DNA from: a virus
Taxonomy: Duplodnaviria > Caudoviricetes
Virus record (IMG/VR): IMGVR_UViG_3300005713_000004
Coordinates: 12,734 to 76,733 of that record
DNA length: 64,000 nt
Reading direction: 5' to 3' (one strand)
Part shown: positions 1-19,531 of the stretch, one piece after another
Position numbering within the stretch: position 1 is the first letter of the stretch
Layout of the letters: each line of letters opens with the position of its first letter
Program-made: the position numbers and the translations under genes
The notes under the pieces: generated by a model
The model's database searches: none
What the model was told of the DNA's origin: nothing
Seen by the model: only the letters and a program-made list of their open reading frames with translations

Positions 1-286
1 CCGCCTCGAAGACGACCAGCGTCTCCCCGAACTCGTCGGTCACGACGGAGGAGAACTCGCCCTCCGTGCGGGCGGCGAGGTCGAGGACCACGGCGAGCAT
101 CTCGTCCCGGCCGTTGACGTCGCCCATGGCGAGCGGCCACATGTCGTCGAGGTGGACGCCGACGCCCCACCGGTCGCCGCGCTCGTCCGGCACGACCTCC
201 GGAACGGCGTAGGTGGCGAGGGACTGGTACGCCATCAGGGCAACGGCGTGGCGGGGGGCGAGGGCGGGGCGGTCGGTGTTCGTCAT
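1..286 (-). CDS. Hypothetical leaderless protein (MTNTDRPAL...), truncated by window edge
   Basis: ATG 7 nt after TAATGT; open to position 1; absent from ORF track. Confidence 0.7.
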   Translation of the reverse strand, partial: MTNTDRPALAPRHAVALMAYQSLATYAVPEVVPDERGDRWGVGVHLDDMWPLAMGDVNGRDEMLAVVLDLAARTEGEFSSVVTDEFGETLVVFEA

Positions 287-293
287 GAGGTAG

Positions 294-321
294 ACATTAC
301 ACGACCCCCCGGGGATGTCAA
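294..321 (-). promoter_or_regulatory. Cassette promoter
   Basis: TTGACA-16-TAATGT. Confidence 0.8.
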
Positions 322-345
322 CACCCGGGGGGTCGGTGGTCTCGA

Positions 346-597
346 TCAGACGAGCGCCGAGACGAGGTCCCGCGCCATCGCGGGGGCCGCCTCGCGCGGG
401 ATCGCCGCGACGTCGCCGGTCCACAGGATGTGCCGCCCGTCGCGGCGGCTACTGCGGCTCCACACGGTCCGGCGCAGGACGAGCGTCGCCGGGTCGTCGG
501 CGACCCAGTCCATCTCGACGAGCACGTCCGGCGTGGAGACGAGCGTCGTCGCGTGGCGCTCGTCCCACCGGGGGTAGTCGGCGGCGGTGTCGGTCAT
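346..597 (-). CDS. Hypothetical protein (MTDTAADYPRW...)
   Basis: Follows upstream ORF by 4 nt, GC3-rich. Confidence 0.65.
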   Translation of the reverse strand: MTDTAADYPRWDERHATTLVSTPDVLVEMDWVADDPATLVLRRTVWSRSSRRDGRHILWTGDVAAIPREAAPAMARDLVSALV

Positions 598-601
598 GAT
601 C

Positions 602-811
602 TCAGCCCTTCGGGTGGACGGCGTCGCGGACGTCGAGGATCTTGCCGAGCACGCCCGCCCACTCCTGCGCCTCCGGGCCGCCGTAGCGGACCATGCGCTC
701 ACGGAAGGTCTCGACGCGTGCGACGAGGTCCGCGAGGTTCTCGGCGCGCTCGCGCTCCGCCTGCTGGCCTCGCAGGGCCGCGTCCAGGGCGCGGGATCCG
801 GTGCTCGCCAT
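602..811 (-). CDS. Hypothetical protein (MASTGSRAL...)
   Basis: AGGAGG SD, downstream of promoter. Confidence 0.7.
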   Translation of the reverse strand: MASTGSRALDAALRGQQAERERAENLADLVARVETFRERMVRYGGPEAQEWAGVLGKILDVRDAVHPKG

Positions 812-848
812 CGTGGGTTCCTCCTGTGGTGGTGGGGTGTTGAGATAG

Positions 849-876
849 AGACTACACGGCCCCCGTGGGATGTCAA
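849..876 (-). promoter_or_regulatory. Cassette promoter
   Basis: TTGACA-TCCCACGGGGGCCGTG-TAGTCT. Confidence 0.8.
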
Positions 877-906
877 CCCACGGGGGCCCTGTACGTGCTC
901 CCGCTA

Positions 907-1164
907 TTACGTGCCCTTGCCCCACTTCGTCCGTGGCGCCGGAGGCGCAGGCGGCGGCGTCTTCGGGCGGGGCGGGAGTGGGGCGCTCCGGGCCTCCCGC
1001 TGCTCGTACAGCAGCCGCGCCCGCGCGTTGTCCGCCTCCGCCCGCGCCATCGACCGGCGCGCCTCCGTGAGCCGGTCAGCCACCCCCACGACCGCGCAGA
1101 CGACGAGCAGCGCGAGGAAGAACGCGGACACCGGGTTCGCGGCGGCGAAGTCGAGGACGCTCAC
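907..1164 (-). CDS. Small membrane protein
   Basis: Hydrophobic FFLALLVVCAVVGVA; GTGA/stop coupling. Confidence 0.6.
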   Translation of the reverse strand: MSVLDFAAANPVSAFFLALLVVCAVVGVADRLTEARRSMARAEADNARARLLYEQREARSAPLPPRPKTPPPAPPAPRTKWGKGT

Positions 1165-1355
1165 CGTGGCCTACCCAGCAGACCCAGCAGCCCCCACCCC
1201 GCGAGCCACCACACGACCGCCGGGGTCGGGATCCCACCGGCGAGGATCTCCCACCCGGCGACCCACAGCAGCGACAGCGCGGACACCGCGAGGATCCCCG
1301 ACGAGGTCCCCCGGTTCTGCGCCCGCTGCTCGGCGGCCGGGCCCTGCGCGATCAC
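1161..1355 (-). CDS. Small membrane protein
   Basis: Two hydrophobic segments; coupled overlaps. Confidence 0.55.
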   Translation of the reverse strand: MIAQGPAAEQRAQNRGTSSGILAVSALSLLWVAGWEILAGGIPTPAVVWWLAGWGLLGLLGRPR

Positions 1356-1552
1356 ACGCCGTCCCGGCGGTCACGGGCGAGCGAGTGGAGCAGCGCCCGG
1401 AGGTCCGACTTCGTCGCCTGCGGGTTGTCCAGCCGGAGCAGGTGGAGCCGCTCCGCTCGCGTCACCCGACCCGCCTTCCGGGTCGACGCCTGCGCCCGGC
1501 GCTCCGTCGCCGCCGCCACCTGCTCCGGGGTCACCGGTCGGCCCCGGTCCAT
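1352..1552 (-). CDS. Hypothetical protein
   Basis: GC3-rich frame; stop overlaps next GTG; start uncertain. Confidence 0.5.
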   Translation of the reverse strand: MDRGRPVTPEQVAAATERRAQASTRKAGRVTRAERLHLLRLDNPQATKSDLRALLHSLARDRRDGV

Positions 1553-2072
1553 CGGAGGGAAGGGGGACGGGGCCGCTGCTGCTGCTCGGACCCGGGCCGG
1601 GGGTCGCTGTCGGAGCAGGGTCGCGAGTCGCTGGGCTCGTCGGTGGCTGCGCGGTCCGCGCGGGTGGGTCGGTGGGGTCTGCTCCCGCTCCGGGTCGAGC
1701 GCCACCGCTTCCCGGTGTCGCTGGTCCTGCTGCTGTCGTGGGGTTGGCACTGGTGGTGTCCTCCGTGATGTAGGGCAGGAGGACCGGGACCTCTCGGACC
1801 ACGGTCTCCGGGGGTGGTGGCGGGATCGTGACGACCAGCGTGGTTGCGGGCACGTCGGGCGGGAACTGCGGGACGGTGATCGGGGCGCCTTCGCCCCGGA
1901 GCAGGGCGCGGACGTCGTCGAAGGCGGAGAGCGGGCCCGCGAGGTGGGAGAGCCATCCTCCCCCGGCGAGGGCTACCGCTGCGGCGGTGAGGTAGCAGGG
2001 CCACCGGTACGCGTCGAGGTCGAGGCGCCTCCGGGGGACCTGCTCGATCTGCTGCGTGTCCACGCCCCCCAT
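1371..2072 (-). CDS. Membrane-anchored Pro/Thr-rich protein
   Basis: SD+ATG at 2072, TM segment, Pro-rich tail; 3' part overlaps next gene. Confidence 0.45.
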   Translation of the reverse strand: MGGVDTQQIEQVPRRRLDLDAYRWPCYLTAAAVALAGGGWLSHLAGPLSAFDDVRALLRGEGAPITVPQFPPDVPATTLVVTIPPPPPETVVREVPVLLPYITEDTTSANPTTAAGPATPGSGGARPGAGADPTDPPARTAQPPTSPATRDPAPTATPGPGPSSSSGPVPLPSDGPGPTGDPGAGGGGDGAPGAGVDPEGGSGDASGAAPPAPAGQPAGDEVGPPGAAPLARP

Positions 2073-2111
2073 CCTGCTCCGATCCACGGTACCCAGGTAT
2101 TGTATCGGCAG

Positions 2112-2130
2112 GCGTTCCACTTCGGAACGC
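2112..2130. promoter_or_regulatory. Inverted repeat in divergent intergenic region, putative operator of transfer module
   Basis: GCGTTCC-ACTTC-GGAACGC between divergent starts at 2072 and 2169. Confidence 0.45.
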
Positions 2131-2168
2131 GGGAGGAGTTCGGGGCATGGACCAGACGGGGAGGCCCG

Positions 2169-2384
2169 GTGGCGGAACCGGTAGTACCGCTGCTCGCGGA
2201 ACTGCGAGCGCTGCGGGAAGCGAGGGACCGGTGGCACAGCCGGGCGCCGGAGATCGTCCGGCTGCTGCGGGAACAGGGGGTGAGCCTGCCCGCGATCCGG
2301 GAGGCGACCGGGGTCGCGCAGGCGACCGCGCATCGGCTCGCGTCCTCCACGTCGCGCAACTCACGCTCGCCGGACCCCCGGTGA
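2169..2384 (+). CDS. Small HTH DNA-binding protein (putative transfer regulator)
   Basis: GGGGAGG SD + GTG; LREQGVSLPAIREATGVAQATAHRL HTH pattern. Confidence 0.65.
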   Translation: MAEPVVPLLAELRALREARDRWHSRAPEIVRLLREQGVSLPAIREATGVAQATAHRLASSTSRNSRSPDPR

Positions 2385-2494
2385 ACGTGTGCGACGAGCG
2401 GCCGTGGCAGGCGGCGGAGGCGGACGCGGAGCAGTGCCGCGCCTGCCAGACGAAGCAGTGGGTTCGGGCCGGGCGACAGGGAGAGACCCGATGA
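2381..2494 (+). CDS. Hypothetical 37-aa protein
   Basis: GTGA and ATGA coupling at both ends. Confidence 0.4.
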   Translation: MNVCDERPWQAAEADAEQCRACQTKQWVRAGRQGETR

Positions 2495-2685
2495 TCGCGG
2501 CGGCTGCGCTCGCCGTGATCCTGCTGGGCGTCCTGCTGTTCCGGGGCGACGCCGGGCGCGTCGGGATCCTCGTCGCGTTCGCCTGCGGCTCCGTGCTGTC
2601 CGGCGCGGCGATGCTGTGGGGTCTCGGATACGACCTGCTCGGCGTGGTCGTACAGGTGGCGTCGAGCGTGGCAGGGATCGGCTGA
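2491..2685 (+). CDS. Small membrane protein (Spd-like spread protein)
   Basis: Mostly hydrophobic; coupled to traA-like gene. Confidence 0.6.
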   Translation: MIAAAALAVILLGVLLFRGDAGRVGILVAFACGSVLSGAAMLWGLGYDLLGVVVQVASSVAGIG

Positions 2686-4298
2686 TGGCCACGTCCTCGA
2701 CGAGTCGCCGCGCGGACGCGACCCCGGCGGCTCCGCCCACCCCCCCGGCTTCGCGTCCGGCGCAGGGTCGGCCGCAGCGGACCGACGCCCCCGGCGCCGA
2801 CGAGGGCGTGGACACGAAGCGGCCCGGCCTGCCGGTGTGGGTCCTCGCGGTGCCCGCCGTGCTGGCCGTGGCGATGTGGATCGGGTGGGCGTTCGGGTGG
2901 GGGTGGGGTGTCGCGTTCGCGGTGGCCGCGCTGCTCGCCCTGCTCGTGTGGCGGCTGCTGGTCGCCCGGAAGGCCCGCGACGCGAAGAGCACGAAGGACG
3001 GGAAGGGCAGCCGGTCGGCCGCCCGGAGGGAGCGCAGGTGGAACAGGCGGACGACGGACGGGTCTACCCGTTCGGGACAGCCGGGGTCGGCTCGTGGTCT
3101 TCGGGGGCTGGCACAGCGGCTGCGTGCGAGGGCTGCGGGGAACCCGTTCCGTGGCGGTACCTCCGGTGGGGGCCGGTCGAGCGGGACGGGCGGGTCGTCG
3201 TCGAGCGGCTCGAACCGGCGTGGCACCCGGCGTGCGGGCGGCGGGCCGCGTGGCAAGGGCTCCGGGCTGATGTCGCGACGGCGCGGGATGCGGTCGTCCT
3301 CGTCGGGGAAGGGCTCGCCCGGCTCGTCCCGCCGATCGTCGGGGCCGTCGGGCCCGTCCTCGAAGCGGGGGTCCCGATCGTCGTCGAGCGGTTCGGGGTG
3401 GTGGTCGCGACTGCGCGGGAAGTCGGGCGCGTCCACCTCGTCCAGGCGCGGCGGGGGCTCCGGTGGGTCCGGGTCGACCGGGTCGGGCGGGCGGCCGGGC
3501 GGTGGGTCGGGGGGCTCGTCGTCCGGGTGGACGCGGCGCGGCAGGAGTGGGCGCGCGGGGTGGGCTACACCCGGGCGTGGCGGCGGGCACTCGACGGGGA
3601 CGACGAGGTGGGTCCCGTGGTGGCGGCGCCGGGGTGGCGCGGGTGGGACGTCCTCCCCGGGGGGGAGCGGTTCCGGCCGCTCGCGCCGGGGGAGTTCGAG
3701 CGGTGGGGGTTCCGGTGGGACGGGCGGCACGCCTCCGTCATCCGGCGGGACCCGGCCGCAGGGGAAGCGGGCCCGGCTTCGGGGGCGGGGGTCCTCGACG
3801 CCTTCCGGCGGTTCGACGGGATCGGGCCCAGCGGGCACGGGGACGTGGACACGCCGTCGCAGCAGCGGCGGCGCCGACAGGGCCGCAGGCCCGGACAGGA
3901 GTAGCGACATGCCGAAGAGCAGCAGCGCGCCGCGTGGGCGGCGGGGGACCGGGGCCGGGCCGTGGGGCCCGATGGTGGACGCGGCGGCGAACGTCGCCCG
4001 CGCGTTCTCCGACCCGGTGGCCATGGAGGGCGTGAACGCGCTCGACACGGCCGGGGACGCGTGGGAGCAGATGGGCCGGTCCGTCAAGGTTGTGGGCGCC
4101 ACGATCGCCGACGAGATCGATTGGGACCCGCGCGTGGCCCGGTTCTTCGAGGTGATGGGGGACGTCCTCATCCGGGCTGCGAAGCCCGCCCGCGACGGTG
4201 CCGCCGCTGTCCGGCGCGCGGAGCACGAGCGGATCAACAACGTGGAGGAGGGCGGCTCGCGCCGTCGCCGGTGGGATATCAGCGCCCACGACAACTAG
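2685..4298 (+). CDS. TraA-like transfer protein: 2 TM, long Gly/Ser/Arg linker, helical C-terminus
   Basis: Position directly before traB; architecture recalls actinomycete plasmid/AICE transfer proteins. Confidence 0.55.
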   Translation: MATSSTSRRADATPAAPPTPPASRPAQGRPQRTDAPGADEGVDTKRPGLPVWVLAVPAVLAVAMWIGWAFGWGWGVAFAVAALLALLVWRLLVARKARDAKSTKDGKGSRSAARRERRWNRRTTDGSTRSGQPGSARGLRGLAQRLRARAAGNPFRGGTSGGGRSSGTGGSSSSGSNRRGTRRAGGGPRGKGSGLMSRRRGMRSSSSGKGSPGSSRRSSGPSGPSSKRGSRSSSSGSGWWSRLRGKSGASTSSRRGGGSGGSGSTGSGGRPGGGSGGSSSGWTRRGRSGRAGWATPGRGGGHSTGTTRWVPWWRRRGGAGGTSSPGGSGSGRSRRGSSSGGGSGGTGGTPPSSGGTRPQGKRARLRGRGSSTPSGGSTGSGPAGTGTWTRRRSSGGADRAAGPDRSSDMPKSSSAPRGRRGTGAGPWGPMVDAAANVARAFSDPVAMEGVNALDTAGDAWEQMGRSVKVVGATIADEIDWDPRVARFFEVMGDVLIRAAKPARDGAAAVRRAEHERINNVEEGGSRRRRWDISAHDN

Positions 4299-4343
4299 GC
4301 CGCAGGGCCTAGGCAGTACCAACCACCACCACAGGAGGACCAC

Positions 4344-6644
4344 GTGTCGGAGACGCCTACCCGGATCACGATCCCGCCCGCGCTGGGCTACCCGGTGTTG
4401 GGCGTCCTCGTCGTGTTCATCGCCGGGTGGCTCTACACGTTCGCCGGGGCGGAGCACTTCGCGCCGTGGTGGCTCCTGCTCGCCGTGCCGGTGCTGGGCT
4501 TCCTCGGCGCCGCGCTCGCCCGGACCTTGTGGGCGGACGTCGCGTACGGGGTCGCCCAGCAGCGGGCGGCGGTGTGGTTCGCGTGGGTCGCGGCGGCCGG
4601 GGCGGGGGCGTGGCTCACGTGGGCCGGGCTCGTCACCCCGGGCGCCGCGCTCCCGCTGCTCGTGTTGGGCGCCCTGCCGTTGTGGGGGTGGTTCGCGATC
4701 CTGTGCCTGCGGGCGCCGAAGGCCCACGCCCGGCAGGTCGAGCGCCGGGAGGAAGGGCGGCAGATCGTCCAAGAACGGTCGTGGCGGACGATCCTCGACC
4801 GGTCGGGGTCGGAGGACGTGGTGATCACGGAGGTCCGAGAGCACCGGGCCGGGATGGTCCTCACGGTCGAGCCGGACCCGGACGCGGCGAAGTTCCCGAC
4901 GTACGACGAGTTCGCGGGCCGGGCGCCGTCGATGGCGACGCAGGCGGCGATGCACTACCGGCGGACCTCGAACACGCGGCTTCCGAAGAACTGCGTCCGG
5001 ACGGAGCCGGGCCGCGACGACGCAGAGTTCCTCGTCCACATCACGATGCGGGACGTGTTCGGGGCCTCGACGTGGTACCAGCCGGACGAGGTCCCGGGGG
5101 ACATCGCGGACCCGGTGGATCTGGGCGAGTACGAGGACGCGGCACGGCTGCTGCTCCCGCTGGACGCGAACACGAAGATCGTGGGGGCGACGGGGGCGGG
5201 GAAGTCCAACCTCGTGAACAACATCATCGGGCGGATCACCGGCACCATGAACGCGCTCGTGTGGGTCGCGGCCACGGACAAGTTGGTCCCGCTCGTGTGG
5301 CCGTGGCTGCGGGCGTGGCTGTCGGGGAAGACGAGCCGCCCGATCCTCGACTACGTCGCTGGGCAGGACATCGACTCCGTGTTGCGGCTGCTGCGGGCGA
5401 CGTACCGGCTCGTCTGCGAGCGCAACGCCCGACTTGAGGACGAGTCGAAGATCCGGCCGACGGCGGACCTGCCGGTGGTGTTCGTGATCCTCGAAGAGGT
5501 GTCCCACCTCACCGACTTCCCGGACACCATCCGGACCCACGACGGGATCGACTGCACGGCTTCGGACCTGCTCAAGATGATTGCGCAGGCGGACCGGTCG
5601 GCGGGGGTCCGGCTGTTCATGCTGTCGCAGTACGGGATCAACGCGGCTCTCGGCGACCGGGCGTCGGAGTTGATCCGCAACATCACGTGCAGGATCTGCC
5701 TTCGGACCATGGAATCCCACGACGGGTTCCGGACCCTGCCGGGTCTGCCGTCGACCGTGGACACGACCTCGCTCGCAAACTTCACGATGTACGTGCAGCC
5801 GAACACCGAAGAGGCGCGGGCGTTCCCGGCGAAGGCGCCGGAACTGGACGGCGCCGAGCAGGTCGAGCCGGTCGCGATCGGGAACACCCGGTGGCGCCCG
5901 GCCGGGGTCGAGCCGGAGGTGGCCGCGCTGCTCGGCCTCGACTACGAGCGGCGGTGGGCGTCCTCGCGCCTGCCGATCCTGGCGGCCCCGGTGGCGAGGC
6001 GCGGGTGGGAGTGGCCCGGCGAGCAGGTGGCGCCGGTCCCGGTCCCGGCGGCGCCGGTCGACGAGGTGGACGAGGGGTCGCCCGTGGCGGGCGGCCCGAA
6101 CGATGGGGGGGACAGCGTGGATACGACCATGAGTCCGGAGGACGAGGACGCGTTCCGGCGGCTGCTCGGCGGCGACGAGCCGGAGCAGCGGCAGGGACCG
6201 GCTGCGGCTGCGTCGGTCGCGGTCGACCGGGACGAGGACACGAGCGGGCGCGCGGCGCCGTTCGAGGTCCCCGACTTCGGCGCGGAGATGGCGGAGATGG
6301 AGGCGCTCGCGGCGGACATCGCGGCGAACCCGTTCGTCCCGGGTCGCGATCAGGACGCGACCCGGGAGGCTGGTCCGGGTCGCCCGGTCCCCGACCCGCT
6401 CGACCGGGTCGTCCGGTGGCTGGACTCCGTCCCGGTCGACGAGGACGCGTGGGTCCGGACGGAGGAACTCGTGTTCCGGATCGGGTGGGACCGGGACGCG
6501 GCGGCTCTCGGTCGGGCGCTCGCGAAGTTCCCGGGCGTCCGGTCGGACAACCTGCCCCGGCAGTTCGACCCGCAGCAGCGGAAGGGCTACCCGGTCCGGA
6601 TGCTTCGGGAGGCGGCGACCCGGTACCGGTTCGGGTCGCCGTAG
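4344..6644 (+). CDS. traB: TraB-type FtsK/SpoIIIE conjugative DNA translocase
   Basis: N-terminal TM helices, Walker A GATGAGKS, Walker B VFVILEE, C-terminal wHTH-like RTEELVFRIGW...LGRAL...RKGY; AGGAGG SD. Confidence 0.85.
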   Translation: MSETPTRITIPPALGYPVLGVLVVFIAGWLYTFAGAEHFAPWWLLLAVPVLGFLGAALARTLWADVAYGVAQQRAAVWFAWVAAAGAGAWLTWAGLVTPGAALPLLVLGALPLWGWFAILCLRAPKAHARQVERREEGRQIVQERSWRTILDRSGSEDVVITEVREHRAGMVLTVEPDPDAAKFPTYDEFAGRAPSMATQAAMHYRRTSNTRLPKNCVRTEPGRDDAEFLVHITMRDVFGASTWYQPDEVPGDIADPVDLGEYEDAARLLLPLDANTKIVGATGAGKSNLVNNIIGRITGTMNALVWVAATDKLVPLVWPWLRAWLSGKTSRPILDYVAGQDIDSVLRLLRATYRLVCERNARLEDESKIRPTADLPVVFVILEEVSHLTDFPDTIRTHDGIDCTASDLLKMIAQADRSAGVRLFMLSQYGINAALGDRASELIRNITCRICLRTMESHDGFRTLPGLPSTVDTTSLANFTMYVQPNTEEARAFPAKAPELDGAEQVEPVAIGNTRWRPAGVEPEVAALLGLDYERRWASSRLPILAAPVARRGWEWPGEQVAPVPVPAAPVDEVDEGSPVAGGPNDGGDSVDTTMSPEDEDAFRRLLGGDEPEQRQGPAAAASVAVDRDEDTSGRAAPFEVPDFGAEMAEMEALAADIAANPFVPGRDQDATREAGPGRPVPDPLDRVVRWLDSVPVDEDAWVRTEELVFRIGWDRDAAALGRALAKFPGVRSDNLPRQFDPQQRKGYPVRMLREAATRYRFGSP

Positions 6645-7186: not shown

Positions 7187-7257
7187 CTGTTGAGTTTTCA
7201 ACCGGACCCGGTGGGCCCGACACGAGAGACATTACACGGCGACCCACGACCACGCAA
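7187..7257 (-). promoter_or_regulatory. Cassette promoter with hairpin and boxA-like leader motif
   Basis: TTGCGT-17-TAATGT (7257-7229); TTGAAAACTCAACAG (7201-7187). Confidence 0.75.
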
Positions 7258-9406: not shown

Positions 9407-9535
9407 TCAGTTCTGCGCTCGCCACGCGGCGGCGTCGGCGCAGGTCTCGCAGTGCCCGTCGCACTGCGGGTCGCCGCAACCGGCGGGGGAGGTGTCGGGG
9501 CGGGGGATGTAGATCCGGTGGCCGCTGCTGCTCAT
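9407..9535 (-). CDS. Small Cys-rich protein (CGDPQCDGHCETC)
   Basis: Downstream of promoter, SD-like AAGGA. Confidence 0.5.
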   Translation of the reverse strand: MSSSGHRIYIPRPDTSPAGCGDPQCDGHCETCADAAAWRAQN

Positions 9536-9581: not shown

Positions 9582-9645
9582 ACATTACACGCCCCCCGTG
9601 GGTCACGCAACCCCCTTGCGTGAACCCACGGCAGGCGTGTAACGT
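9582..9645. promoter_or_regulatory. Back-to-back divergent cassette promoters
   Basis: Minus TTGCGT-17-TAATGT (9610-9582); plus TTGCGT-18-TAACGT (9616-9645). Confidence 0.75.
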
Positions 9646-9652: not shown

Positions 9653-9991
9653 ATGACGACACGGACAGCACAGCCCCCCGCCCCACCGAAGCCGGTCCAC
9701 CTCACCCCCGGCGAGACCCGGGGCACGTGGACGGCCGTTGACGGCCGGTTCACGATCACGACCTACCGTGCCGGGCGAGGCGCCACCGCCGACGAGCGGG
9801 AGCAACAGGCCGCCGGAGCGCTCGACATCGTGGACACGGCGCGGCGCAACATCCTCGGACACGTGGGTACCGACACCGCCCGCGTCTACGACCGCGAGGA
9901 CGCCGTGGGCGCCATCACCCGCGTCCTACGGATCGAGCACCGGGACGCGGTCCGCCTCGCCGAACTCCGCGTCGCCCGGCGGGTGATCTGA
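9653..9991 (+). CDS. Hypothetical leaderless protein
   Basis: ATG 7 nt after -10. Confidence 0.7.
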   Translation: MTTRTAQPPAPPKPVHLTPGETRGTWTAVDGRFTITTYRAGRGATADEREQQAAGALDIVDTARRNILGHVGTDTARVYDREDAVGAITRVLRIEHRDAVRLAELRVARRVI

Positions 9992-10775: not shown

Positions 10776-11633
10776 TCACGACCAGACGAGCCCCACGACG
10801 TTGACGTAGCCGCCTCCGGTCCCGAGGACGAGCGGGGCGGTCATCGTGATGGTGCAGCCGGTCGCGGTGAGCGTCCCCGACTTGAGGACCATCGTGATCG
10901 AGCCCAGCGTCCCGCCTCCGGGCTCGCGCAGGATCGCGATCGAGGTCGGGACGGCGCCTGCGCTGGTCCACGTGACCGCGACGTCGGTCGGGGTATTCAG
11001 CGCGAGCGCAGGCACCGCGACGCGGCCGTGGACGAGCCGGGGCCGGAGCGCTTCGAGCGCGGTCACGCGGGTGGTGAGCGCGGCGACCGCAGCGGCTGCG
11101 GCGTCGGCGGTGGTCTTCGCTCCGGCCGCTGTCGCGCCCGCTGCGGTCGCGGTCGACTGGGCGGCGGCTGCGTCCGTCTTCGCGGTGTTCGCCGTGGACT
11201 GGGCGGCGGAGGCTGCGGTACCGGCTGCGGTGGCGGTGGTCTGTGCTGCGGCGGCTGCGGTCGAGGCTGCGGCGGCTGCGGCGGTCGCCTCCGTGGCGCT
11301 CGTCTTCGCGCTGTCCCCGGTGGCCTTCGCGGTGTCGGCGGCCGTCTTCGCCGCAGCAGCGGCGGTCGAAGCGAGCGCGGCGGCTGCGCTCGCGGACTGG
11401 GCGGCGGTCGAGGCGGCTCCGGCTGCGGTGGTCGCGTCGGCGGCTGCGGTCCCGGCGGCGGTGGCCATGGTCCGGGCGTTGCTGGCCATGGTCCGGGCGC
11501 TGTCCCCGGTGGCCTGCGCGCTGTCGGCGGATGCCTGTGCCGCAGCAGCAGCGGCGGCGGCTTGAGCAGCGGCGTAGGACCGACGCTCAAGCTCGATCAG
11601 ACGTTCGGTGACCGGGCCGGTGATCTGGCGCAC
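10776..11633 (-). CDS. Ala-rich coiled-coil fibre-like protein with C-terminal beta domain
   Basis: GGGAGG SD + GTG; long A/T/S heptad-like run, then RVTALE and beta-rich C-terminus. Confidence 0.7.
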   Translation of the reverse strand: MRQITGPVTERLIELERRSYAAAQAAAAAAAAQASADSAQATGDSARTMASNARTMATAAGTAAADATTAAGAASTAAQSASAAAALASTAAAAAKTAADTAKATGDSAKTSATEATAAAAAASTAAAAAQTTATAAGTAASAAQSTANTAKTDAAAAQSTATAAGATAAGAKTTADAAAAAVAALTTRVTALEALRPRLVHGRVAVPALALNTPTDVAVTWTSAGAVPTSIAILREPGGGTLGSITMVLKSGTLTATGCTITMTAPLVLGTGGGYVNVVGLVWS

Positions 11634-11730
11634 GCTCGACCTCCCGTCGGCGCGGGCGGACACGAGGACAGGGTAGGGCGGGGCGCCGGGCGACGCACCT
11701 TCCCCACCGTGGATTACCTTGCCAAACCTT

Positions 11731-11822
11731 CCGTGGATTGTCAACCCGCCTGGTCCGATCGGGTGACAATCCACGGAATCCACGCAGGGGGCTTGCGCGT
11801 GTCCACGCCTTGCGGGTAATGT
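11731..11822. promoter_or_regulatory. Divergent promoter/operator region
   Basis: Minus TTGACA (11744-11739) within CCGTGGATTGTCA/TGACAATCCACGG inverted repeat; plus TTGCGC-18-TAATGT (11793-11822). Confidence 0.7.
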
Positions 11823-12651: not shown

Positions 12652-12680
12652 TTGCACTTCCCACGGTCGCCGGGTAATGT
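12652..12680 (+). promoter_or_regulatory. Cassette promoter
   Basis: TTGCAC-17-TAATGT. Confidence 0.7.
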
Positions 12681-13146: not shown

Positions 13147-13252
13147 CCGTGGGTTGTCACCCGATCGGACCACCTCCCCGGCTTGACTTCCCCCGGGTCG
13201 CCGTGTAATGTCTCTCTTGTCGGACACGGAGCCCGGCGGGACAACTCAACAG
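13147..13252 (+). promoter_or_regulatory. Cassette promoter with upstream inverted half-site and boxA-like leader
   Basis: TTGACT-17-TAATGT (13183-13211); GGGACAACTCAACAG (13238-13252). Confidence 0.8.
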
Positions 13253-13664: not shown

Positions 13665-13771
13665 CCGTGGAATGTCACCCGATCGGACCATGGTCCGGGC
13701 TGGACAACCCACGGTCGACCGGGTAATGTCCCTCGTGTCGGGCCGGTCGGCCCGGCGGGACAACTCAAGAG
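13665..13771 (+). promoter_or_regulatory. Cassette promoter with upstream inverted half-site and boxA-like leader
   Basis: TGGACA-17-TAATGT (13701-13729); GGGACAACTCAAGAG. Confidence 0.75.
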
Positions 13772-13937: not shown

Positions 13938-14002
13938 TCGAGCAGCCGCCCCGCTCCGGCGGGGCGGCTGCCCCTCTCCACCACCTCGACCAGCAGGAGG
14001 AC

Positions 14003-14431: not shown

Positions 14432-14643
14432 GGGCGCAGCGGTGGGCGGACCGGCTGCTCGACGTCGCGGCCGACGAGGTGGCGGGGTCGCCGGTGTTTA
14501 GGCAGGTCCGCCGCGACATCGTGGCCGCGTACGCCCCGCAGGTCCGGGCGTCGGTGCTGCGGGAGGTGGGGACCCTGCTCCCCCGGACGAGCCTTCACCG
14601 GGCCGGGTGGGCGGGCGAGATCGCCCGGGACCTCGCCCGGTAG
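14428..14643 (+). CDS. Hypothetical protein
   Basis: GTGA coupling, followed by hairpin. Confidence 0.55.
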   Translation: MRAQRWADRLLDVAADEVAGSPVFRQVRRDIVAAYAPQVRASVLREVGTLLPRTSLHRAGWAGEIARDLAR

Positions 14644-14785
14644 CGGCTGGTCGAGCAGCGGAGCCCCCGGCGTGTCGCGCGCCGGGGGCTCCGGCGTGTC
14701 GCGGGGCGGCGAGGCTGTGACCTGCGAGAACCCGGGGAGGCGACACGCCCGGGTGCACAACACGCCGCGTCCACGCCCCCGGGTG

Positions 14786-14813
14786 TTGACATCCCACGGC
14801 GACCGTGTAGAGT
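14786..14813 (+). promoter_or_regulatory. Cassette promoter (leaderless)
   Basis: TTGACA-TCCCACGGCGACCGTG-TAGAGT. Confidence 0.85.
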
Positions 14814-14820
14814 CTCCCTC

Positions 14821-15225
14821 ATGAACAACGCAGCCGCCGCCCCCGCCCCCCTCGCCCCCACCGCCCCGGCGACCGTCGCCGGTGCTTCGACCCAGGAGGT
14901 CACCATGTCCGCTCTCACCGCCGCCCGCGCCGCCGTCGAGGCGATCGAGGCTGAGGTCCACGACCTCATGGCCTGCGACGACACCGCGTTTGACGCGGAC
15001 CTCGCCGACCGCCACGAGCGGGCCCTTGCCGCCCTCCGGGCTGCGGAAGCGCAGGTCACGGCGCCGCAGGCGGTCCGGTGGGTCGTCGAGGGTCGGCGGC
15101 TCGCGACCCGGCGGGTGCTCCGCTGGGCGGGCGAGGCGACCAGCCGGGCCGACGCGGTGGCGCAGGCACAGGCGAAGTGGGGCGCGGGCGCGCTGGTCGA
15201 CGCGGCGGGCGAGGTGATCCGCTAG
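14821..15225 (+). CDS. Hypothetical leaderless protein
   Basis: ATG 7 nt after -10. Confidence 0.75.
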   Translation: MNNAAAAPAPLAPTAPATVAGASTQEVTMSALTAARAAVEAIEAEVHDLMACDDTAFDADLADRHERALAALRAAEAQVTAPQAVRWVVEGRRLATRRVLRWAGEATSRADAVAQAQAKWGAGALVDAAGEVIR

Positions 15226-15332
15226 GGGCCCGGGGGTCCGGCTTCGGCCGGGCCCCACCCCCTCCGACCTGCGACGATGCGGCGAGCCCGGCGGCTGCGA
15301 CGCACGTCACCCGATCGGCCCACCCCCGGGGG

Positions 15333-15360
15333 TTGACTTCCCACGGCCACCGTGTAGAGT
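15333..15360 (+). promoter_or_regulatory. Cassette promoter (leaderless)
   Basis: TTGACT-TCCCACGGCCACCGTG-TAGAGT. Confidence 0.85.
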
Positions 15361-15367
15361 CATTCCC

Positions 15368-15733
15368 ATGACGAACACCACCGCCCCCGCCGCCCTCCCC
15401 GCCCGCCCGGCTCGCGCCCCCCGGGGCTTCGTTGCCGCCGACCGCTGCGGGACCTGCGACGGGCGCGGCGCCCACCTCGTCCCGGCCGTGGACGGGGACG
15501 GTGAGTTCGTCCTCGACGGGGAGGGCTTCGAGGTCGAGGTCCCCACCACCTGCGAGGACTGCGAGGGCCGGGGCTGGGCGCGGGACGAGCGGACCCCGGA
15601 GCAGGTCCGCGCGGAGGCGGAGGCGGCGAAGGCGGAGCGCATCGCCGATCACCTCGCCTTCGTGGCGGAGTTCGGGTACACCCCGGGTCGGGCCCCGTCC
15701 TGCGGGGGGAACTACTGCCGCTGCGAGCGGTGA
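15368..15733 (+). CDS. Leaderless protein with DnaJ-type CxxCxGxG zinc finger
   Basis: CGTCDGRG and CEDCEGRG. Confidence 0.75.
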   Translation: MTNTTAPAALPARPARAPRGFVAADRCGTCDGRGAHLVPAVDGDGEFVLDGEGFEVEVPTTCEDCEGRGWARDERTPEQVRAEAEAAKAERIADHLAFVAEFGYTPGRAPSCGGNYCRCER

Positions 15734-15811
15734 GGTGGGGCGGTGACCAGGGGAAACCCTGGTCACCGACACGCCCGGCCGGGCGACACGCCGGGGATCC
15801 CCCTCCGGGGG

Positions 15812-15839
15812 TTGACATCCCACGGCGACCGTGTAGAGT
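15812..15839 (+). promoter_or_regulatory. Cassette promoter (leaderless)
   Basis: TTGACA-TCCCACGGCGACCGTG-TAGAGT, identical to 14786-14813. Confidence 0.85.
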
Positions 15840-15846
15840 TACACCC

Positions 15847-16110
15847 ATGACGAACACCGGAACCCCCGCCCCCGCCGCCCCCGCCTACACCGACGCGGAG
15901 GCCCTCGACGAGTCGGTCCTGATGATGCTCCGCAAGGCCCGCCGGGTCGGCGTGCTGGACCAGGTCCGGGCCCTGCTCGGCGACGACGTGTGGGACACCC
16001 TCTGCGCCGCCGAGACCCGGGCCGACGCCCTCCGCTTCGCCGACGAGCGGCGCGGCATCCCCCTCTGCTCCCGCCCCTTCCCCGTTGCCGACGAGGACGA
16101 GGACGCCTGA
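15847..16110 (+). CDS. Hypothetical leaderless protein
   Basis: ATG 7 nt after -10; hairpin after stop. Confidence 0.75.
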   Translation: MTNTGTPAPAAPAYTDAEALDESVLMMLRKARRVGVLDQVRALLGDDVWDTLCAAETRADALRFADERRGIPLCSRPFPVADEDEDA

Positions 16111-16418
16111 CCGGGCGGGGGCTGCGGCCCCCACCTGCGGCCCCCGGTGCTCCGGCTCCGGGGGCCGCTTCGTGTCCACGGCCCGGAGGCGCTGAGCGAC
16201 CCTGTGCGGCCCGCTGCGGGGCGGGCGGGCGGGAGGGACCGGCGAGGGCTGAGAGGCCCGCAGCGGGCCTCTCACGGCTCGCGTGGGGTGTCTCCGCTGG
16301 GCGGCCGGAGCGGGCGGCAGGCGGGCCGCGCGTACGCGGTGACGGGCCCCCGGCGCGTGCCCGCTCCGGCCGCTGGCCAGGGTACCCGCCGGGCGGGATC
16401 GAGGTCGGTTACCTGTAG

Positions 16419-16513
16419 ACGATGCCACATCCGGACATCCCACGTCAACCGTGGGATGTCACCCGATCGTACGAACTTCCGGGCTTGACTTCCCACGGTC
16501 GGCCGGGTAATGT
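16419..16513. promoter_or_regulatory. Divergent promoter pair sharing operator inverted repeat
   Basis: Minus TTGACG-18-CATCGT (16448-16419); plus TTGACT-17-TAATGT (16485-16513). Confidence 0.7.
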
Positions 16514-16560
16514 CTTTCATGTCAGGGGGGAACGGCCCCCCGGGAAGATCGGAGAACATC

Positions 16561-16788
16561 ATGAACGCCGCCACCGCCGCCGCCCTCACCGCCACCCTCA
16601 CCGCCGCCGGGGCGACCGACATCCACGAGGTCTCCACCACCCGCCGCACGATCGTCGCCTTCACCGCCGCCGGTGACTCGATCTTCCCGATCATGGACGC
16701 CCTGCTCGTCGCCTCCGCCGCCGACCGGCACGCCGCGATCTTCACCCACGCCGACACCTCGACCGGCCGCTACCACGTGCAGGGCTGA
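16561..16788 (+). CDS. Hypothetical protein
   Basis: GGAG SD; hairpin after stop. Confidence 0.7.
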   Translation: MNAATAAALTATLTAAGATDIHEVSTTRRTIVAFTAAGDSIFPIMDALLVASAADRHAAIFTHADTSTGRYHVQG

Positions 16789-16846
16789 GCCCTCCGGGCT
16801 GGCCCCCGCCCTCCGGGGCGGGGGCTTCCTGCTGGTCCCGGCAGGG

Positions 16847-16975
16847 TTGACAACACCACGCCGATCGTGTATCGTCTACAGGTAACCGTGCTCGACCCCG
16901 CGACCCGGCTCCGTGGGACGTCACCCGATCGGACCATGGTTCGGGGTTGACTTCCCACGGCGTGCCGGGTAATGT
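16847..16975 (+). promoter_or_regulatory. Tandem promoters
   Basis: TTGACA-17-TATCGT (16847-16875); TTGACT-17-TAATGT (16947-16975). Confidence 0.8.
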
Positions 16976-17013
16976 CTCTCTTGTCAGCAGGGAACGAACA
17001 CCAGGAGGACACG

Positions 17014-17250
17014 ATGTCGAACACCACCGCCGCCCAGGTCACCACCACCGGCCGCATCGCCGCCGCCATCCGGGCCGCCGGGTTCACCATCTCCTACCTG
17101 CCGCTTCCCTCCGGCCGGACCGTGGTCCGGGTTGACGTCCCCACCCTCGACCCCCGGGTCTTCGACCTGATGACCGCCGTGGCGGACTTCGGGGTCACGG
17201 TCTTCCCGGCGGGCGACGGCGAGCGCTGGACGAACGTCGCGGCCATCTGA
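17014..17250 (+). CDS. Hypothetical protein
   Basis: AGGAGG SD; hairpin after stop. Confidence 0.75.
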   Translation: MSNTTAAQVTTTGRIAAAIRAAGFTISYLPLPSGRTVVRVDVPTLDPRVFDLMTAVADFGVTVFPAGDGERWTNVAAI

Positions 17251-17307
17251 GCCTGCGGGCTCCGGCCCCCGCCTCCGGGCGGGGGCTTTCCCGTGCGCCG
17301 AGTGGGC

Positions 17308-17488
17308 TTGACTTCCCAACGGCGACCGTGTATCGTCTACAGGTAACCGGGCTCGATTCCGGCAGGTCGTCGCCGGGACCTCCGTGGGATGTCACCCGAT
17401 CGGCCAACCCTTCGGGGTTGACAACCCACGGCGACCCACGTAATGTCTACATCACCGGGAGGGACACCCCGCCCGGACAACTCAACAG
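17308..17488 (+). promoter_or_regulatory. Tandem promoters, second with boxA-like leader
   Basis: TTGACT-17-TATCGT (17308-17336); TTGACA-17-TAATGT (17418-17446); CGGACAACTCAACAG. Confidence 0.8.
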
Positions 17489-17500
17489 AGGGAGGTTCCG

Positions 17501-17656
17501 ATGGGATCCGGAAACGGTGATCAGGAGGACATCACGGAGGACGGGACGTGGTCCTGTCCCATGTGCGGCGAGAGCGGCACATGCGTGACGGGTGACGAGG
17601 GCGCAGCCCTCACGGCCCACGTTGCGTTCGGGTGTCCGGCGGCGCAGGCCGACTGA
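17501..17656 (+). CDS. Small putative zinc-finger protein
   Basis: GGGAGG SD; CPMC...HVAFGC; absent from ORF track. Confidence 0.6.
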   Translation: MGSGNGDQEDITEDGTWSCPMCGESGTCVTGDEGAALTAHVAFGCPAAQAD

Positions 17657-17733
17657 TCACCACCCGCCCCCGGCTTCGGCCGGGGGCGGGACCGGGTCCC
17701 GGATCCACCCTCGCCACGAAGGGAGGGCCGGTC

Positions 17734-18306
17734 ATGGACTGGCGGCACGGCGCCCACTGCCGGGGCGCGAGCGAGCCGGAGGTGTGGTTCCCGGTCGACG
17801 AGGACCAGGGCCACGACGCGCCGGGTGTGGTTCGGGCGCGCCTCGCCTGCGCGCCGTGCCCGGTCCGGGCGGAGTGCCTGTCATGGGCCTTCGAGTCCGG
17901 GCAGACGGCCGGTGTGTGGGGCGGGATGTCGACGCCGGAGCGCCGGGCCCTGCGCGCCCCGGAGCGGCTCCGTGTGGCCGCTGCTGCGGCGTCGGACCGG
18001 CGAGCCCGGGAGGACGCACAGCGGGACGCACAGGAGGACGCAGGCGCCAGCACGGAGGGCGGGGCGGGGGACACCCTGCCTCGCCCTCGTCGGCGGCGGG
18101 GTGGCCAGCCGCCGGGGACGACGCGGGCCCACCGGTCCGGGTCGGTCGGCCGCTGCGCCACCTGCTCGAAGCGCCTCGACCTGCGCGCGGACGGGCGAGT
18201 CGTCCGGCACGACCGGGTGTTGGACGGGAAGCGTGGGCACTGCCCCGGCTCCGGCGAGGTGTCGGCGGTCGAGGCGCTTCCCGGGTCGGGGCGTGTCCAC
18301 GGGTAG
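17734..18306 (+). CDS. whiB: WhiB-family Fe-S transcription factor with C-terminal Cys/His extension
   Basis: C...WFP...CAPCPVRAEC...GVWGG. Confidence 0.9.
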   Translation: MDWRHGAHCRGASEPEVWFPVDEDQGHDAPGVVRARLACAPCPVRAECLSWAFESGQTAGVWGGMSTPERRALRAPERLRVAAAAASDRRAREDAQRDAQEDAGASTEGGAGDTLPRPRRRRGGQPPGTTRAHRSGSVGRCATCSKRLDLRADGRVVRHDRVLDGKRGHCPGSGEVSAVEALPGSGRVHG

Positions 18307-18333
18307 CCGTGACATACTCCGCATGGCGGGGGG

Positions 18334-18362
18334 TTGCGTAACCCCCGGCGAGCGTGTAGTGT
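18334..18362 (+). promoter_or_regulatory. Promoter
   Basis: TTGCGT-17-TAGTGT. Confidence 0.65.
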
Positions 18363-18418
18363 CATCTATGGTGGGAGAGGGTCTCTCGCCAGAACGAGAC
18401 GAGAGGGAGGGGACAGCA

Positions 18419-18796
18419 GTGGCAAAGCGCAAGGAACCGATGGCGCCGATCAGCTACAAGACGGCGGGCGCGGAGTGGGGCAACGCGGCTGCGGCTGCGG
18501 CCCTGTGCGTGGGCAGCGACGGCAAGGCGATCTCCGCCGACACGTTCCAGTGGTACGTGCGAACCGCCGACCCGAACGGCGACAACCCCCCGCCGAAGGC
18601 GGAGCGGGTGGACCCGCACACCCGGCAGAGCATGTACCGGCTCAAGCGGGTACGGGAGTGGCACGCGAAGCGGCCCGGCCGTGGGAATTGGGGCGGCATC
18701 GGCGCCCGCGCCCGCCTGCCGAAGGACCAGCAGGGCGAGCCCGTGGACACGCCCGCCCCGGAGGCGGGCGCGGAGCCCGCCTCGCAGGACGCGTGA
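18419..18796 (+). CDS. Actinophage HTH DNA-binding protein
   Basis: TFQWYV...PPP...VREWHAKRPGRG motif; GGAGG SD. Confidence 0.7.
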   Translation: MAKRKEPMAPISYKTAGAEWGNAAAAAALCVGSDGKAISADTFQWYVRTADPNGDNPPPKAERVDPHTRQSMYRLKRVREWHAKRPGRGNWGGIGARARLPKDQQGEPVDTPAPEAGAEPASQDA

Positions 18797-19047
18797 CCAG
18801 CATGCACGGGGCCCTCTCCTCGCCGGTGATCCTGCCGGTCGTGGGGAGGGCTCCGCTGTATCGGGATGCGGTCGCGTGGCTCGAAGCGCTGCGGGACGTC
18901 GCCGACGCGAACGGCCACGGGCAGGCGGCCCGGTACGCGGTCGCCGTGCTCGACCTCGTCGCCGCTGCGCACGACGCGGCCGACGCCGGGTACGGTCCGC
19001 CGGACCTGCTCGCCGCGCTGCTGCCCTTCCCCCGGTCCGCGCTGTGA
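18793..19047 (+). CDS. Hypothetical protein
   Basis: GTGA coupling. Confidence 0.55.
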   Translation: MTSMHGALSSPVILPVVGRAPLYRDAVAWLEALRDVADANGHGQAARYAVAVLDLVAAAHDAADAGYGPPDLLAALLPFPRSAL

Positions 19048-19457
19048 CCCGCTCGTGGTCGCACGCGGCGAGGACCATCGACGCGGTCCCGCTGTACCGG
19101 CTGCGGATCGAGGCGGCGCAGGTGGACCCGCTGCGTCACCTCGCCCTGCCGGGGCAGCGGGCCGGGTACCTCGAAGGGGTCGCCGCCGTGCACCTCGAAC
19201 CGGACGACTTCGGGTCGCCTGCCCATCGGGTCGAGTGGCGGGAGCAGCGGGGCGGCTCGTGGTTCACCATCGGGTACGCGGCCGACGAGCCGGGCGGCGA
19301 GCAGGATCCGGCGGCGGACCCGCGCGTCGAGGACGTGATGCGGCGCCTCGACCGGGGGCGGGTCGGGGTGCTGACCGGGGACCCGGTGTCGCTGCTCGCG
19401 GCGGAGGTCCGGCGTCTCCGTGGATTGTCACCCGATCGGCCCACCTCCGGGGTTTGA
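19044..19457 (+). CDS. Hypothetical protein
   Basis: GTGA coupling. Confidence 0.55.
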   Translation: MTRSWSHAARTIDAVPLYRLRIEAAQVDPLRHLALPGQRAGYLEGVAAVHLEPDDFGSPAHRVEWREQRGGSWFTIGYAADEPGGEQDPAADPRVEDVMRRLDRGRVGVLTGDPVSLLAAEVRRLRGLSPDRPTSGV

Positions 19458-19531
19458 CAACCCACGGCTAGCCGGGTAATGTCTCTCTCATCGGGCGGGG
19501 CGCTCCCCCTCCCGGGTTGATAACTCAACAG
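19418..19531 (+). promoter_or_regulatory. Cassette promoter with upstream inverted half-site and boxA-like leader
   Basis: TTGACA-17-TAATGT (19454-19482); TTGATAACTCAACAG (19517-19531). Confidence 0.8.

Follow-up and report, generated by a model that had tools for sequence, protein, structure and literature searches.

In T4-type phages, promoter-early stem-loops (PeSLs) join a strong sigma-70-type early promoter to a polyG/polyC stem-loop lying between or over the promoter hexamers, upstream of ORFans (PMC2839356, Arbiol et al. 2010). Several sub-classes occur within one genome, in plastic regions associated with modular shuffling and mini-circles (PMC2839356; PMC4122927, Comeau et al. 2014). 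Here we analyse a 64-kb stretch of DNA (the window), which forms bases 12734-76733, the right 64 kb, of the 76,733-bp IMG/VR virus record IMGVR_UViG_3300005713_000004, and describe an array of some 30 near-identical units that precede about 55 small genes of unassigned function. An analogy with PeSLs had been drawn in an earlier interpretation of this DNA (the sequence-only reading), and PeSLs do provide the closest published match, a composite of sigma-70-type promoter and stem-loop upstream of ORFans (PMC2839356). On balance we favour a reading in which the units are composite terminator/promoters, each probably fusing a strong promoter of the host principal-sigma type to a GC-rich hairpin. 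Directly observed are the sequence features and how strongly they are enriched, the potential for hairpins, whose arms covary, the unrelatedness of the genes and the same or an analogous array in two relatives.

The phage phiC31 reportedly controls early transcription through conserved inverted repeats (CIR operators) together with repeated early promoters and terminators; it is an integrating temperate phage, its repressor gene c encodes the products that bind the CIRs, and its early promoters are not of the TTGACA/TAnnnT type. The host-takeover module of SPO1 and the early clusters of T5 and T7 contain many short operons of small unknown genes, each with a strong early promoter for the host RNA polymerase and a terminator; we know of no dyad or hairpin commonly embedded in these promoters and of no documented role for them in cassette exchange. 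The stoperators of Cluster A mycobacteriophages (L5, Bxb1) and Streptomyces phage R4 are 13-bp asymmetric sites with an invariant GTCAAG end, present in 20-30 copies (PMC6550527, PMC5559632, PMC10276819, PMC9283540) and mostly in one orientation relative to transcription (PMC6550527). Most stoperators are not promoters, and they are bound by a monomeric gp71-type repressor in temperate phages with an integrase or parABS (PMC6550527, PMC5559632, PMC10276819, PMC9283540).

In the present DNA, all 19 positions at which the sequence-only reading had listed a recurrent promoter-operator unit proved, on sequence inspection and pattern search, to be promoter-like units of the sigma-70/HrdB type. Coordinates of units span the start of the -35 to the end of the -10 element, and are given either within the window (w or window) or within the 76.7-kb record (genome). 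Each unit is laid out as a TTGACA or TTGCGT -35, a spacer of 16-18 nucleotides (nt) ending in CG(T/G)G, and a TA(A/G)(T/A)GT -10, with the full consensus GGG-TTGAC(A/T)-(T/A)CCCACGG-N4-5-C(C/G)G(T/G)G-TA(A/G)(T/A)GT-CT. The pattern T[TG]G[AC][CG]N-16..18-TAnnnT fits 27 units, near-invariant at T1, T2 and G3 of the -35 and at T1, A2 and T6 of the -10. G predominates at positions -4 to -1, where 23-24 of the 27 have GGG, and the upstream flank is GC-rich. The array is thus real, but its earlier extent of about 20 cassettes at w286-19531 was too small: at least 27 units occur genome-wide, spread over genome 3.5-32.2 kb. It runs 9.3 kb to the left beyond the window, with at least seven further minus-strand units (genome 3491-12692). 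Outlying units lie at window 26105(-), 35551(-) and 35557(+), a degenerate copy at 36392, and at least two more units beyond the 27 counted were spotted by eye near genome 7240 and 7620.

The enrichment of these sequences is strong. TTGACW-N12-13-CGKG-TARWGT, with 16 specified bases, has 8 exact matches against 0.00 expected from 100 shuffles; CCACGG-N3-CCGTG occurs in 12 copies against 0.28 expected in a shuffle control; and the 13-bp half-site, allowing at most one mismatch, is found 27 times against 7.4 expected. A relaxed promoter regular expression retrieves 29 sites from the 76.7-kb genome, about 22 of them intergenic and three more at the extreme ends of called genes. By comparison, a still looser one gives a single match in ~185 kb of related DNA of similar GC and none in most of 28 additional loci, the pattern being nearly missing from more than 400 kb of comparable DNA. 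Within IMG/VR the motif was found in no other contig than the 12.5-kb UViG_3300049001_000017 (L044), the sole other public contig to carry it; JGI metagenomes and GTDB genomes gave single chance matches only, and five Pseudonocardiaceae genomes with a related terminase showed no enrichment. Three loci retrieved with a shorter pattern (L076-L078) were dismissed as chance matches of low GC or no homology.

The copies are 60-76% identical over 100-160 nt, beyond a core of at most 28 bp; the 28-bp identity claimed for the copies at 14786 and 15812 was borne out and is the longest exact match between any units. At least four sub-classes can be told apart: class A, predicted to be leaderless; class B, leadered; class C, with a TATCGT -10 (16847+, 17308+); and a type with a TTGCG(T/C) -35 (7257-, 9610-, 9616+, 11793+, 18334+). 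In class A (321-, 14786+, 15333+, 15812+, genome 11441-, 12692-), an ATG stands exactly 7 nt past the -10, implying leaderless mRNAs, and the first codons of the open reading frames (ORFs) are alike, M-T/N-N/T-T. Class B consists of ~101-nt repeats with a reverse half-site CCGTGGGA(T/A)GTCA, then C-CCGATCGG, then TTGAC(A/T)(A/T)CCCACGG, which lies exactly 24 bp beyond the half-site in seven of seven copies; downstream come TAATGT and a hairpin in the 5' leader, to which seven leaders add GACAACTCAACAGAG. A kept 5' hairpin is present in the leaders after window 7229(-), 13211, 13729, 17446 and 19482 and genome 8284(-), 9983(-) and 7237(-), and in these same eight it is followed by (G/T)(A/T)(C/A/T)AACTCAA(C/T)AGAG directly before the ribosome-binding site. 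The units in the window and their associated features are as follows, with leaderless starts being predictions.

294-321, minus strand: class A unit, TTGACA-16-TAATGT; ATG 7 nt past the -10, leaderless; the -35 is the loop of a 12-bp GC hairpin.
849-876, minus strand: promoter unit, TTGACA-16-TAGTCT; 12-bp hairpin GGCCCCCGTGGG/CCCACGGGGGCC around the -35; leader with an AGGAGG ribosome-binding site.
7229-7257, minus strand: TTGCGT-type unit with a TAATGT -10, then a 5' leader hairpin and AAACTCAACAGAG; upstream of w6824-7165(-).
9582-9645 (9582-9610 minus, 9616-9645 plus): two divergent TTGCGT-type promoters forming the arms of one long palindrome, ACGCAA-GGGGG-TTGCGT between CCCACGG and CCGTGGG.
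9616-9645, plus strand: the plus-strand promoter of this pair, with a leaderless ATG at 9653.
11731-11822, plus strand: four ATCCACGG/ATCCACGC half-sites and a TTGCGC-18-TAATGT promoter (11793-11822), the putative promoter of the SprT-like gene w11863-12555.
12652-12680, plus strand: class B promoter, TTGCAC-17-TAATGT, with a 5' leader hairpin; upstream of w12728-13117.
13147-13211, plus strand: class B unit (promoter 13183-13211) with reverse half-site CCGTGGGTTGTCA, CCGATCGG, the 24-bp gap and TTGACT-17-TAATGT; upstream of w13265-13510.
13665-13729, plus strand: class B unit (promoter 13701-13729) with reverse half-site, CCGATCGG and TGGACA-17-TAATGT; three genes, w13785-14643.
14701-14859, plus strand: class A 159-nt repeat; promoter 14786-14813, TTGACA-TCCCACGGCGACCGTG-TAGAGT; leaderless ATG at 14821.
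15248-15406, plus strand: class A 159-nt repeat; promoter 15333-15360; leaderless ATG at 15368.
15727-15885, plus strand: class A 159-nt repeat; promoter 15812-15839, the 28-bp match to 14786-14813; leaderless ATG at 15847.
16440-16540, plus strand: class B 101-nt repeat; half-site 16449-16461, promoter 16485-16513; upstream of w16561-16788.
16847-16875, plus strand: class C promoter, TTGACA-17-TATCGT, then a conserved, putatively transcribed CTACAGGTAACCG..CTCGA; 100 bp upstream of the next class B promoter.
16902-17002, plus strand: class B 101-nt repeat; half-site 16911-16923, promoter 16947-16975; upstream of w17014-17250.
17308-17336, plus strand: class C promoter, TTGACT-17-TATCGT; downstream sequence as at 16847.
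17373-17473, plus strand: class B 101-nt repeat; half-site 17382-17394, promoter 17418-17446; a 51-amino-acid (aa) ORF, then a WhiB1-like gene.
18334-18362, plus strand: TTGCGT-17-TAGTGT promoter inside a GGGGGTT..AACCCCC hairpin; three genes, w18419-19457.
19409-19509, plus strand: class B 101-nt repeat; half-site 19418-19430, promoter 19454-19482; upstream of w19545-20210.
26076-26105, minus strand: outlying unit, TTGACG-CTTCCCACGGAAACCGTG-TAGCAT.
35523-35593, both strands: divergent leaderless pair; 35551(-) leads to an XRE-type gene, 35557(+), with spacer GACACCACGGCGGCCGGG and a TATCGT -10, to a lipoprotein-like ORF.
63720-63800, minus strand: two direct 30-bp repeats GTCACGCAGGGTGACAT(T/G)CCACGGAG(A/C)GTGA, at a distance of 56 bp from each other, 60 and 116 nt ahead of the first late gene.

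GC hairpins, which the sequence-only reading had placed at the ends of many cassettes, are predicted at nearly every unit; RNAfold gives GC stems of 11-17 bp, with the -35 lying in either their loop or their 3' arm. The arrangement is tightest in nine compact units (genome 8949-, 9458-, 11441-, 12692-; window 321-, 876-, 9610-, 9616+, 18334+), where the 5' arm begins 18-32 nt past the upstream stop codon, the loop is the -35 hexamer and the 3' arm is the whole spacer, finishing at CGTG against the -10, as in CACGACCCCCGGGG / TTGACATC / CCCCGGGGGTCGTG / TAGTGT. Minimum free energies in these nine range from -23 to -34 kcal/mol, with z-scores as low as -6.6. The arms vary yet remain complementary (CCGCAGG..CCTGCGG, CCGTGGG..CCCACGG, CCGGGG..CCCCGG): the mean pairing energy of each arm with its own spacer is -18.9 kcal/mol, versus -15.1 kcal/mol with the spacers of other units; the observed own-arm mean was reached in none of 5000 permutations, and the unit's own arm ranks 1-2 of 27 for eight units. 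Because the arms covary, pairing itself appears to be selected in the compact units. The tail, comprising the -10 and the next 10 nt, has a T fraction of 0.38 versus 0.139 genome-wide, so that in read-through RNA the hairpin would be succeeded by the most U-rich stretch available. The dyad that had been taken for an operator is in most units the stem of a -35-enclosing hairpin with covarying arms and reads first as a terminator/insulator fused to the promoter; it may serve as an operator as well.

The genes behind the units are small and unlike one another. An all-against-all blastp of 140 called proteins gave no paralog pair at E < 1e-3, in agreement with the earlier description of the cassette genes as unrelated; that of one to three ORFs per promoter was right in part, the actual range being 1-5 genes per unit. 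Nearly all products are ORFans, with almost no match in Pfam, PHROGs or 50,697 phage genomes (tblastn), the exceptions being the SprT-like protein, two WhiB-domain proteins and a few function-unknown PHROGs. The anti-host function that the sequence-only reading had proposed for the array is thus unsupported and stays a hypothesis. ARAGORN found no tRNA and Rfam nothing at or near the gathering score in w1-22000.

These features can be rationalised by a mechanism in which the hairpin, when transcribed from the upstream gene, would bring about termination or insulation, while in DNA form the same sequence would act as a promoter that restarts transcription, so that each cassette of 1-5 ORFan genes would be expressed by itself, presumably early. 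In class A, translation would begin at the ATG 7 nt past the -10 of a leaderless mRNA; class B transcripts would have, in addition, a 5' hairpin conserved among their leaders, with GACAACTCAACAGAG frequently coming after it. That the units promote and terminate transcription, that they act early and that any regulator binds them are predictions from the DNA.

Several observations weigh against this composite reading. A scan for canonical T-tailed terminators called none, although terminators commonly lack a T-tract in high-GC actinobacteria. Of the class A units, those at 14786, 15333 and 15812 on the plus strand have only a short 5-bp spacer hairpin, and in the seven class B units the two 13-bp arms keep their 24-bp spacing while their 1-3 mismatches are uncompensated, a pattern that looks more like protein binding than RNA pairing. 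Class B units also often have a separate terminator-like hairpin farther upstream. CCACGG-N3-CCGTG is also found where two genes converge (40979) and within the coding sequence of two late genes (54672, 62652), and a unit of L044 keeps the motif although the upstream stop codon falls within its -35 and no long hairpin is formed.

Some of these observations speak for an alternative that we hold to be possible but tentative, and which is compatible with the hairpins: the conserved dyad and half-site could be mainly operators, through which a phage DNA-binding protein switches all cassettes jointly. Its sites would be, within the spacer, CCACGG-N3-CCG(T/G)G and, around the -35, half-sites of the form TGAC(A/T)(A/T)CCCACGG, in the manner of the phiC31 CIRs or the L5/R4 stoperators. 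Beyond the class B geometry, the off-array copies of the over-represented dyad, including one in the degenerate promoter at 36392, and the L044 unit, this alternative draws on the late operon, upstream of which the two direct repeats at 63720-63800(-) contain GGGTGACAT(T/G)CCACGGAG, an extended half-site found in class B units; they may be a regulator site common to the late operon and the early units. It further draws on a promoter divergent from a helix-turn-helix (HTH) gene, whose spacer carries CCACGG-CGG-CCGGG, and on a second relative, G006, in which another near-palindrome, TAACA-N4-TGTTA, occupies the same promoter positions, at times as direct repeats unable to pair. The HTH candidates seen are the XRE-type protein and a small HTH in a TraB-like module, and the principal candidate readers of the sites are:

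w35120-35515, minus strand: XRE-family HTH protein, 131 aa; putative sequence-specific regulator.
w17734-18306, plus strand: WhiB1-like protein (residues 1-76) with an Arg-rich, Cys-rich C-terminal extension; alternative candidate that may bind sigma region 4 and read DNA by the -35.

The XRE-type gene is predicted to be leaderless from 35551(-) of the divergent pair, where GCGCAA-N5-TTGCGC palindromes overlap both -35 boxes (35523-35593). On the plus side of 35523-36472 lie two ORFs with lipoprotein-type signal peptides (~35594-36016, 36140-36472), and an automatic minus-strand gene call in this region (35512-36273) is probably wrong. The WhiB1-like protein matches PDB 6ONO/5OAY (E 1e-20) and has an RPRRRRGG stretch and a Cys/His-rich tail; a second WhiB-domain protein is encoded at w20670-21206, both having extra domains. 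We rejected as regulator the product of the gene beside the half-site cluster 11731-11776, since it is Ala-rich, fibre-like and not DNA-binding in appearance. This gene, window 10776-11663(-), encodes a 295-aa Ala/Thr-rich repetitive protein, fibre- or coiled-coil-like, with 21-nt periodic repeats in its DNA, and its promoter region includes four ATCCACGG copies.

On the other side, no regulator could be linked to the sites, which occur in both orientations, unlike stoperators. Their conservation may equally stem from common descent of the 100-160-nt repeat units, and the strong arm covariation in compact units points to selection for pairing rather than for a fixed sequence. The integrase and ParB families PF00589, PF00239 and PF02195 have zero matches in this record, which CheckV rates 100% complete, so that neither a tyrosine nor a serine integrase nor ParB was found; a search with L5 gp71 against the whole 76.7-kb genome in six frames returned nothing at E <= 10, although a very remote homologue is possible. 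A role in immunity (lysogeny) is therefore doubtful, and the joint silencing of the cassettes suggested in the sequence-only reading is unsupported and stays hypothetical. Because covariation in the compact units favours pairing while several facts also suggest a sequence-specific protein, we rank the composite terminator/promoter first and an additional operator role as a serious, non-exclusive second.

The comparison with relatives bears on the remaining alternatives. By megablast/blastn the genome (72.6% GC) gave no match in 50,697 phage records, and its large terminase (TerL) is at most 38% identical to those of cultured phages, with Streptomyces phage Kromp as top match. TerL relatives at 56-78% identity, the closest at 78% and 73%, come from metagenomes and from prophages of Pseudonocardia, Prauserella, Actinophytocola and Labedaea, and the host is probably a member of the Pseudonocardiaceae. 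L044 bridges both ends of the record (genome 61-1, then 76548-76442); the record is therefore taken as the whole genome, opened near its terminus. Structural genes are transcribed leftward from the right genome end, and the left 32 kb comprise, in order, minus-strand small genes (genome 0.4-14.3 kb), a plasmid-like module (w2.1-11.7 kb) with a DUF2637 protein, a YdjM-like protein and a 766-aa protein, and plus-strand small genes (w11.8-20.2 kb). Cassettes were compared with two distant relatives, L044 (TerL 72%) and G006 (TerL 60%); prophage and metagenome-assembled relatives (L001-L005, L031-L034) share only the terminase and a few other genes and were unusable for this purpose.

In L044 (L044:1-3480), units occur at 366, 2848, 3041 and, truncated, at the very first base of the contig, with the same leaderless start. 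Its DNA is 78% identical along an HNH-like gene as far as the stop codon. Beyond this point L044 has a class A unit with a leaderless hydrophobic ORF of 40 aa, where the present phage has a leadered unit and an unrelated 51-aa acidic ORF; homology (75%) restarts right past the cassette stop codon, at the downstream hairpin. A second homology breakpoint adjoins the unit at genome 3491. A ~130-nt structured non-coding element (genome 7013-6886, minus strand; L044:531-658), located on the downstream side of the exchanged small cassette, is 75% identical between the two and ends in a promoter-like TAGAAT/TAGAGT.

G006 (UViG_3300035684_000002; loci L046, L072-L074) is a complete 73.8-kb IMG/VR genome with an array at record 32943-54677. 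Its units, at least 11, have an identical layout built on the other near-palindrome, CTAACAGGGGGG-TTGCGC-N7-CT(A/G)ACAGGGGTGT-TAGAGT; the dyad adjoins the -10 and repeats just upstream of the TTGCGC -35, sometimes as an unpairable direct repeat, and the units have leaderless starts or a conserved 5' hairpin leader (ATGCCCGGACGGACCGGGCGG). Homologues of the adjacent w15368-15733 (E 1e-5) and w15847-16110 (E 1e-9) stand there in reversed order, separated by a further cassette, and one of the two follows a different type of promoter/leader. Although class A units are preceded by GACCTGCG both here and in G006, we rejected it as a cassette signal, since it is in excess throughout the genome, genes included, probably through codon usage.

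A more speculative proposal, which we consider unlikely, is a phage lineage, probably infecting Pseudonocardiaceae, with phage-specific dyad "promoter codes" in every early cassette promoter at fixed positions, beside the -35 and against the -10 (CCACGG-N3-CCGTG here and in L044, TAACA-N4-TGTTA in G006), each read by a co-evolving phage factor such as a WhiB1-like protein tethered to sigma region 4 or an XRE-type HTH protein. The units would double as terminators and as crossover points that move promoter-plus-ORF cassettes between phages, as an independent actinobacterial counterpart of PeSLs.

Similarly doubtful is the possibility that the repeats are chiefly recombination substrates, through which unit-to-unit exchange with RecE-like/SSAP (single-strand annealing protein) functions would delete, duplicate and swap cassettes, perhaps as mini-circles, like T4-type PeSLs. 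The RecE-like gene named in the sequence-only reading is present, and its neighbour w32672-33793 (phrog_3657, function unknown) may encode the SSAP:

w34080-35123, minus strand: RecE-like (exonuclease VIII, PDDEXK) gene; phrog_412, E 1.8e-77.

The replaced promoter-to-stop block and the breakpoint at genome 3491 in L044, the inverted cassette order in G006 and the 28-bp longest exact identity between units fit such exchange, in which involvement of the RecE-like protein is conjecture. However, both relatives are distant, mosaic joints in phages coincide with gene boundaries in any case, three or more of the joints in this stretch of L044 lie outside units, the copies are only 60-76% identical over 100-160 nt, and any shuffling may be a by-product of the repeats rather than their function. 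The identical gene order that would have spoken against the exchangeability proposed earlier was not seen, and cassette-level differences exist in both relatives; with several breakpoints away from units, these data lend weak support to cassette exchange between phages.

That the repeats are a chance or compositional artefact, or leftovers of one gene's tandem duplication, is highly improbable: only a general GC-palindrome bias of high-GC DNA speaks for it, shuffles and comparable DNA are almost devoid of the patterns, nearly all copies are intergenic with correct spacing to start codons, and the flanking genes are dissimilar, the lack of paralogs ruling out gene duplication as the origin.

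Further elements were noted within the array. Three (T/C)ATCGT -10 promoters (16847-16900, 17308-17361, ~16420-16448-) share a putatively transcribed CTACAGGTAACCG-N2-CTCGA(Y)(Y)CCG, and two of them continue into the following class B unit; the third, on the minus strand, reads into a 370-bp highly structured stretch without coding signal (window 16110-16480), possibly a non-coding RNA. Directly behind the 9610(-) promoter, before a hairpin and w8908-9351, lies a 43-aa Cys-rich ORF missed by the gene calls (MSSSGHRIYIPRPDTSPAGCGDPQCDGHCETC...; window 9407-9535, minus strand).

Set against the described systems, the array resembles PeSLs in four sequence-level features: a sigma-70-type promoter consensus, a stem-loop in or over the promoter, placement upstream of ORFans, and sub-classes. 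As with PeSLs, the units are concentrated in one region (genome 3.5-32.2 kb). Of the differences between relatives, one cassette replacement and one breakpoint in L044 fall at units and G006 shows an order change, these relatives being distant and other breakpoints lying off units. The differences are that the host replicon is a 73% GC actinophage, known from sequence alone, and not a T4-like myovirus; that GGG and a GC-rich flank stand in place of an AT-rich UP region; that many transcripts are predicted to be leaderless; and that class B has an inverted repeat with a fixed 24-bp gap and CCGATCGG core. Like stoperators, at least 20 short intergenic sites overlap a TTGACA -35-like core in an actinophage, and the half-site TGAC(A/T)(A/T)CCCACGG has the TTGACA core and a GTGG block in common with them, but the sequence is otherwise different (stoperator GGTGGTTGTCAAG; reverse complement of the present site CCGTGGGATGTCAA). 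In contrast to stoperators, the sites are part of promoters or hairpins, occur in both orientations and, in class B, form an inverted pair of half-sites, in a genome where no gp71 homologue, integrase or ParB was found. The phiC31 CIR array is matched in having highly conserved intergenic inverted repeats beside early-type promoters, predicted here and, unlike those of phiC31, of the TTGACA/TAnnnT type; and the block of short, separately promoted operons of small, mostly unknown genes recalls SPO1, T5 and T7.

The array is thus real and unusually regular, and it adds a new instance of an already known design rather than a system of a new kind. To our knowledge, PeSL-type mobile regulatory cassettes are documented only in T4-like myoviruses, and conserved operator arrays are known from few temperate actinophages; the present array unites the two designs in an unrelated, uncultivated high-GC phage without a detectable integrase, in a compact form in which the -35 is the loop, the spacer the stem and the -10 region the tail. 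If the proposed activities hold, actinomycete synthetic biology would gain from it ~30 strong natural promoters, each carrying its own insulator and some of them leaderless, and it would provide a handle on the gain and loss of orphan early genes in actinophages. Together with PeSLs it would then represent one solution that arose independently at two extremes of base composition, insulating strongly promoted ORFan cassettes while allowing their exchange.

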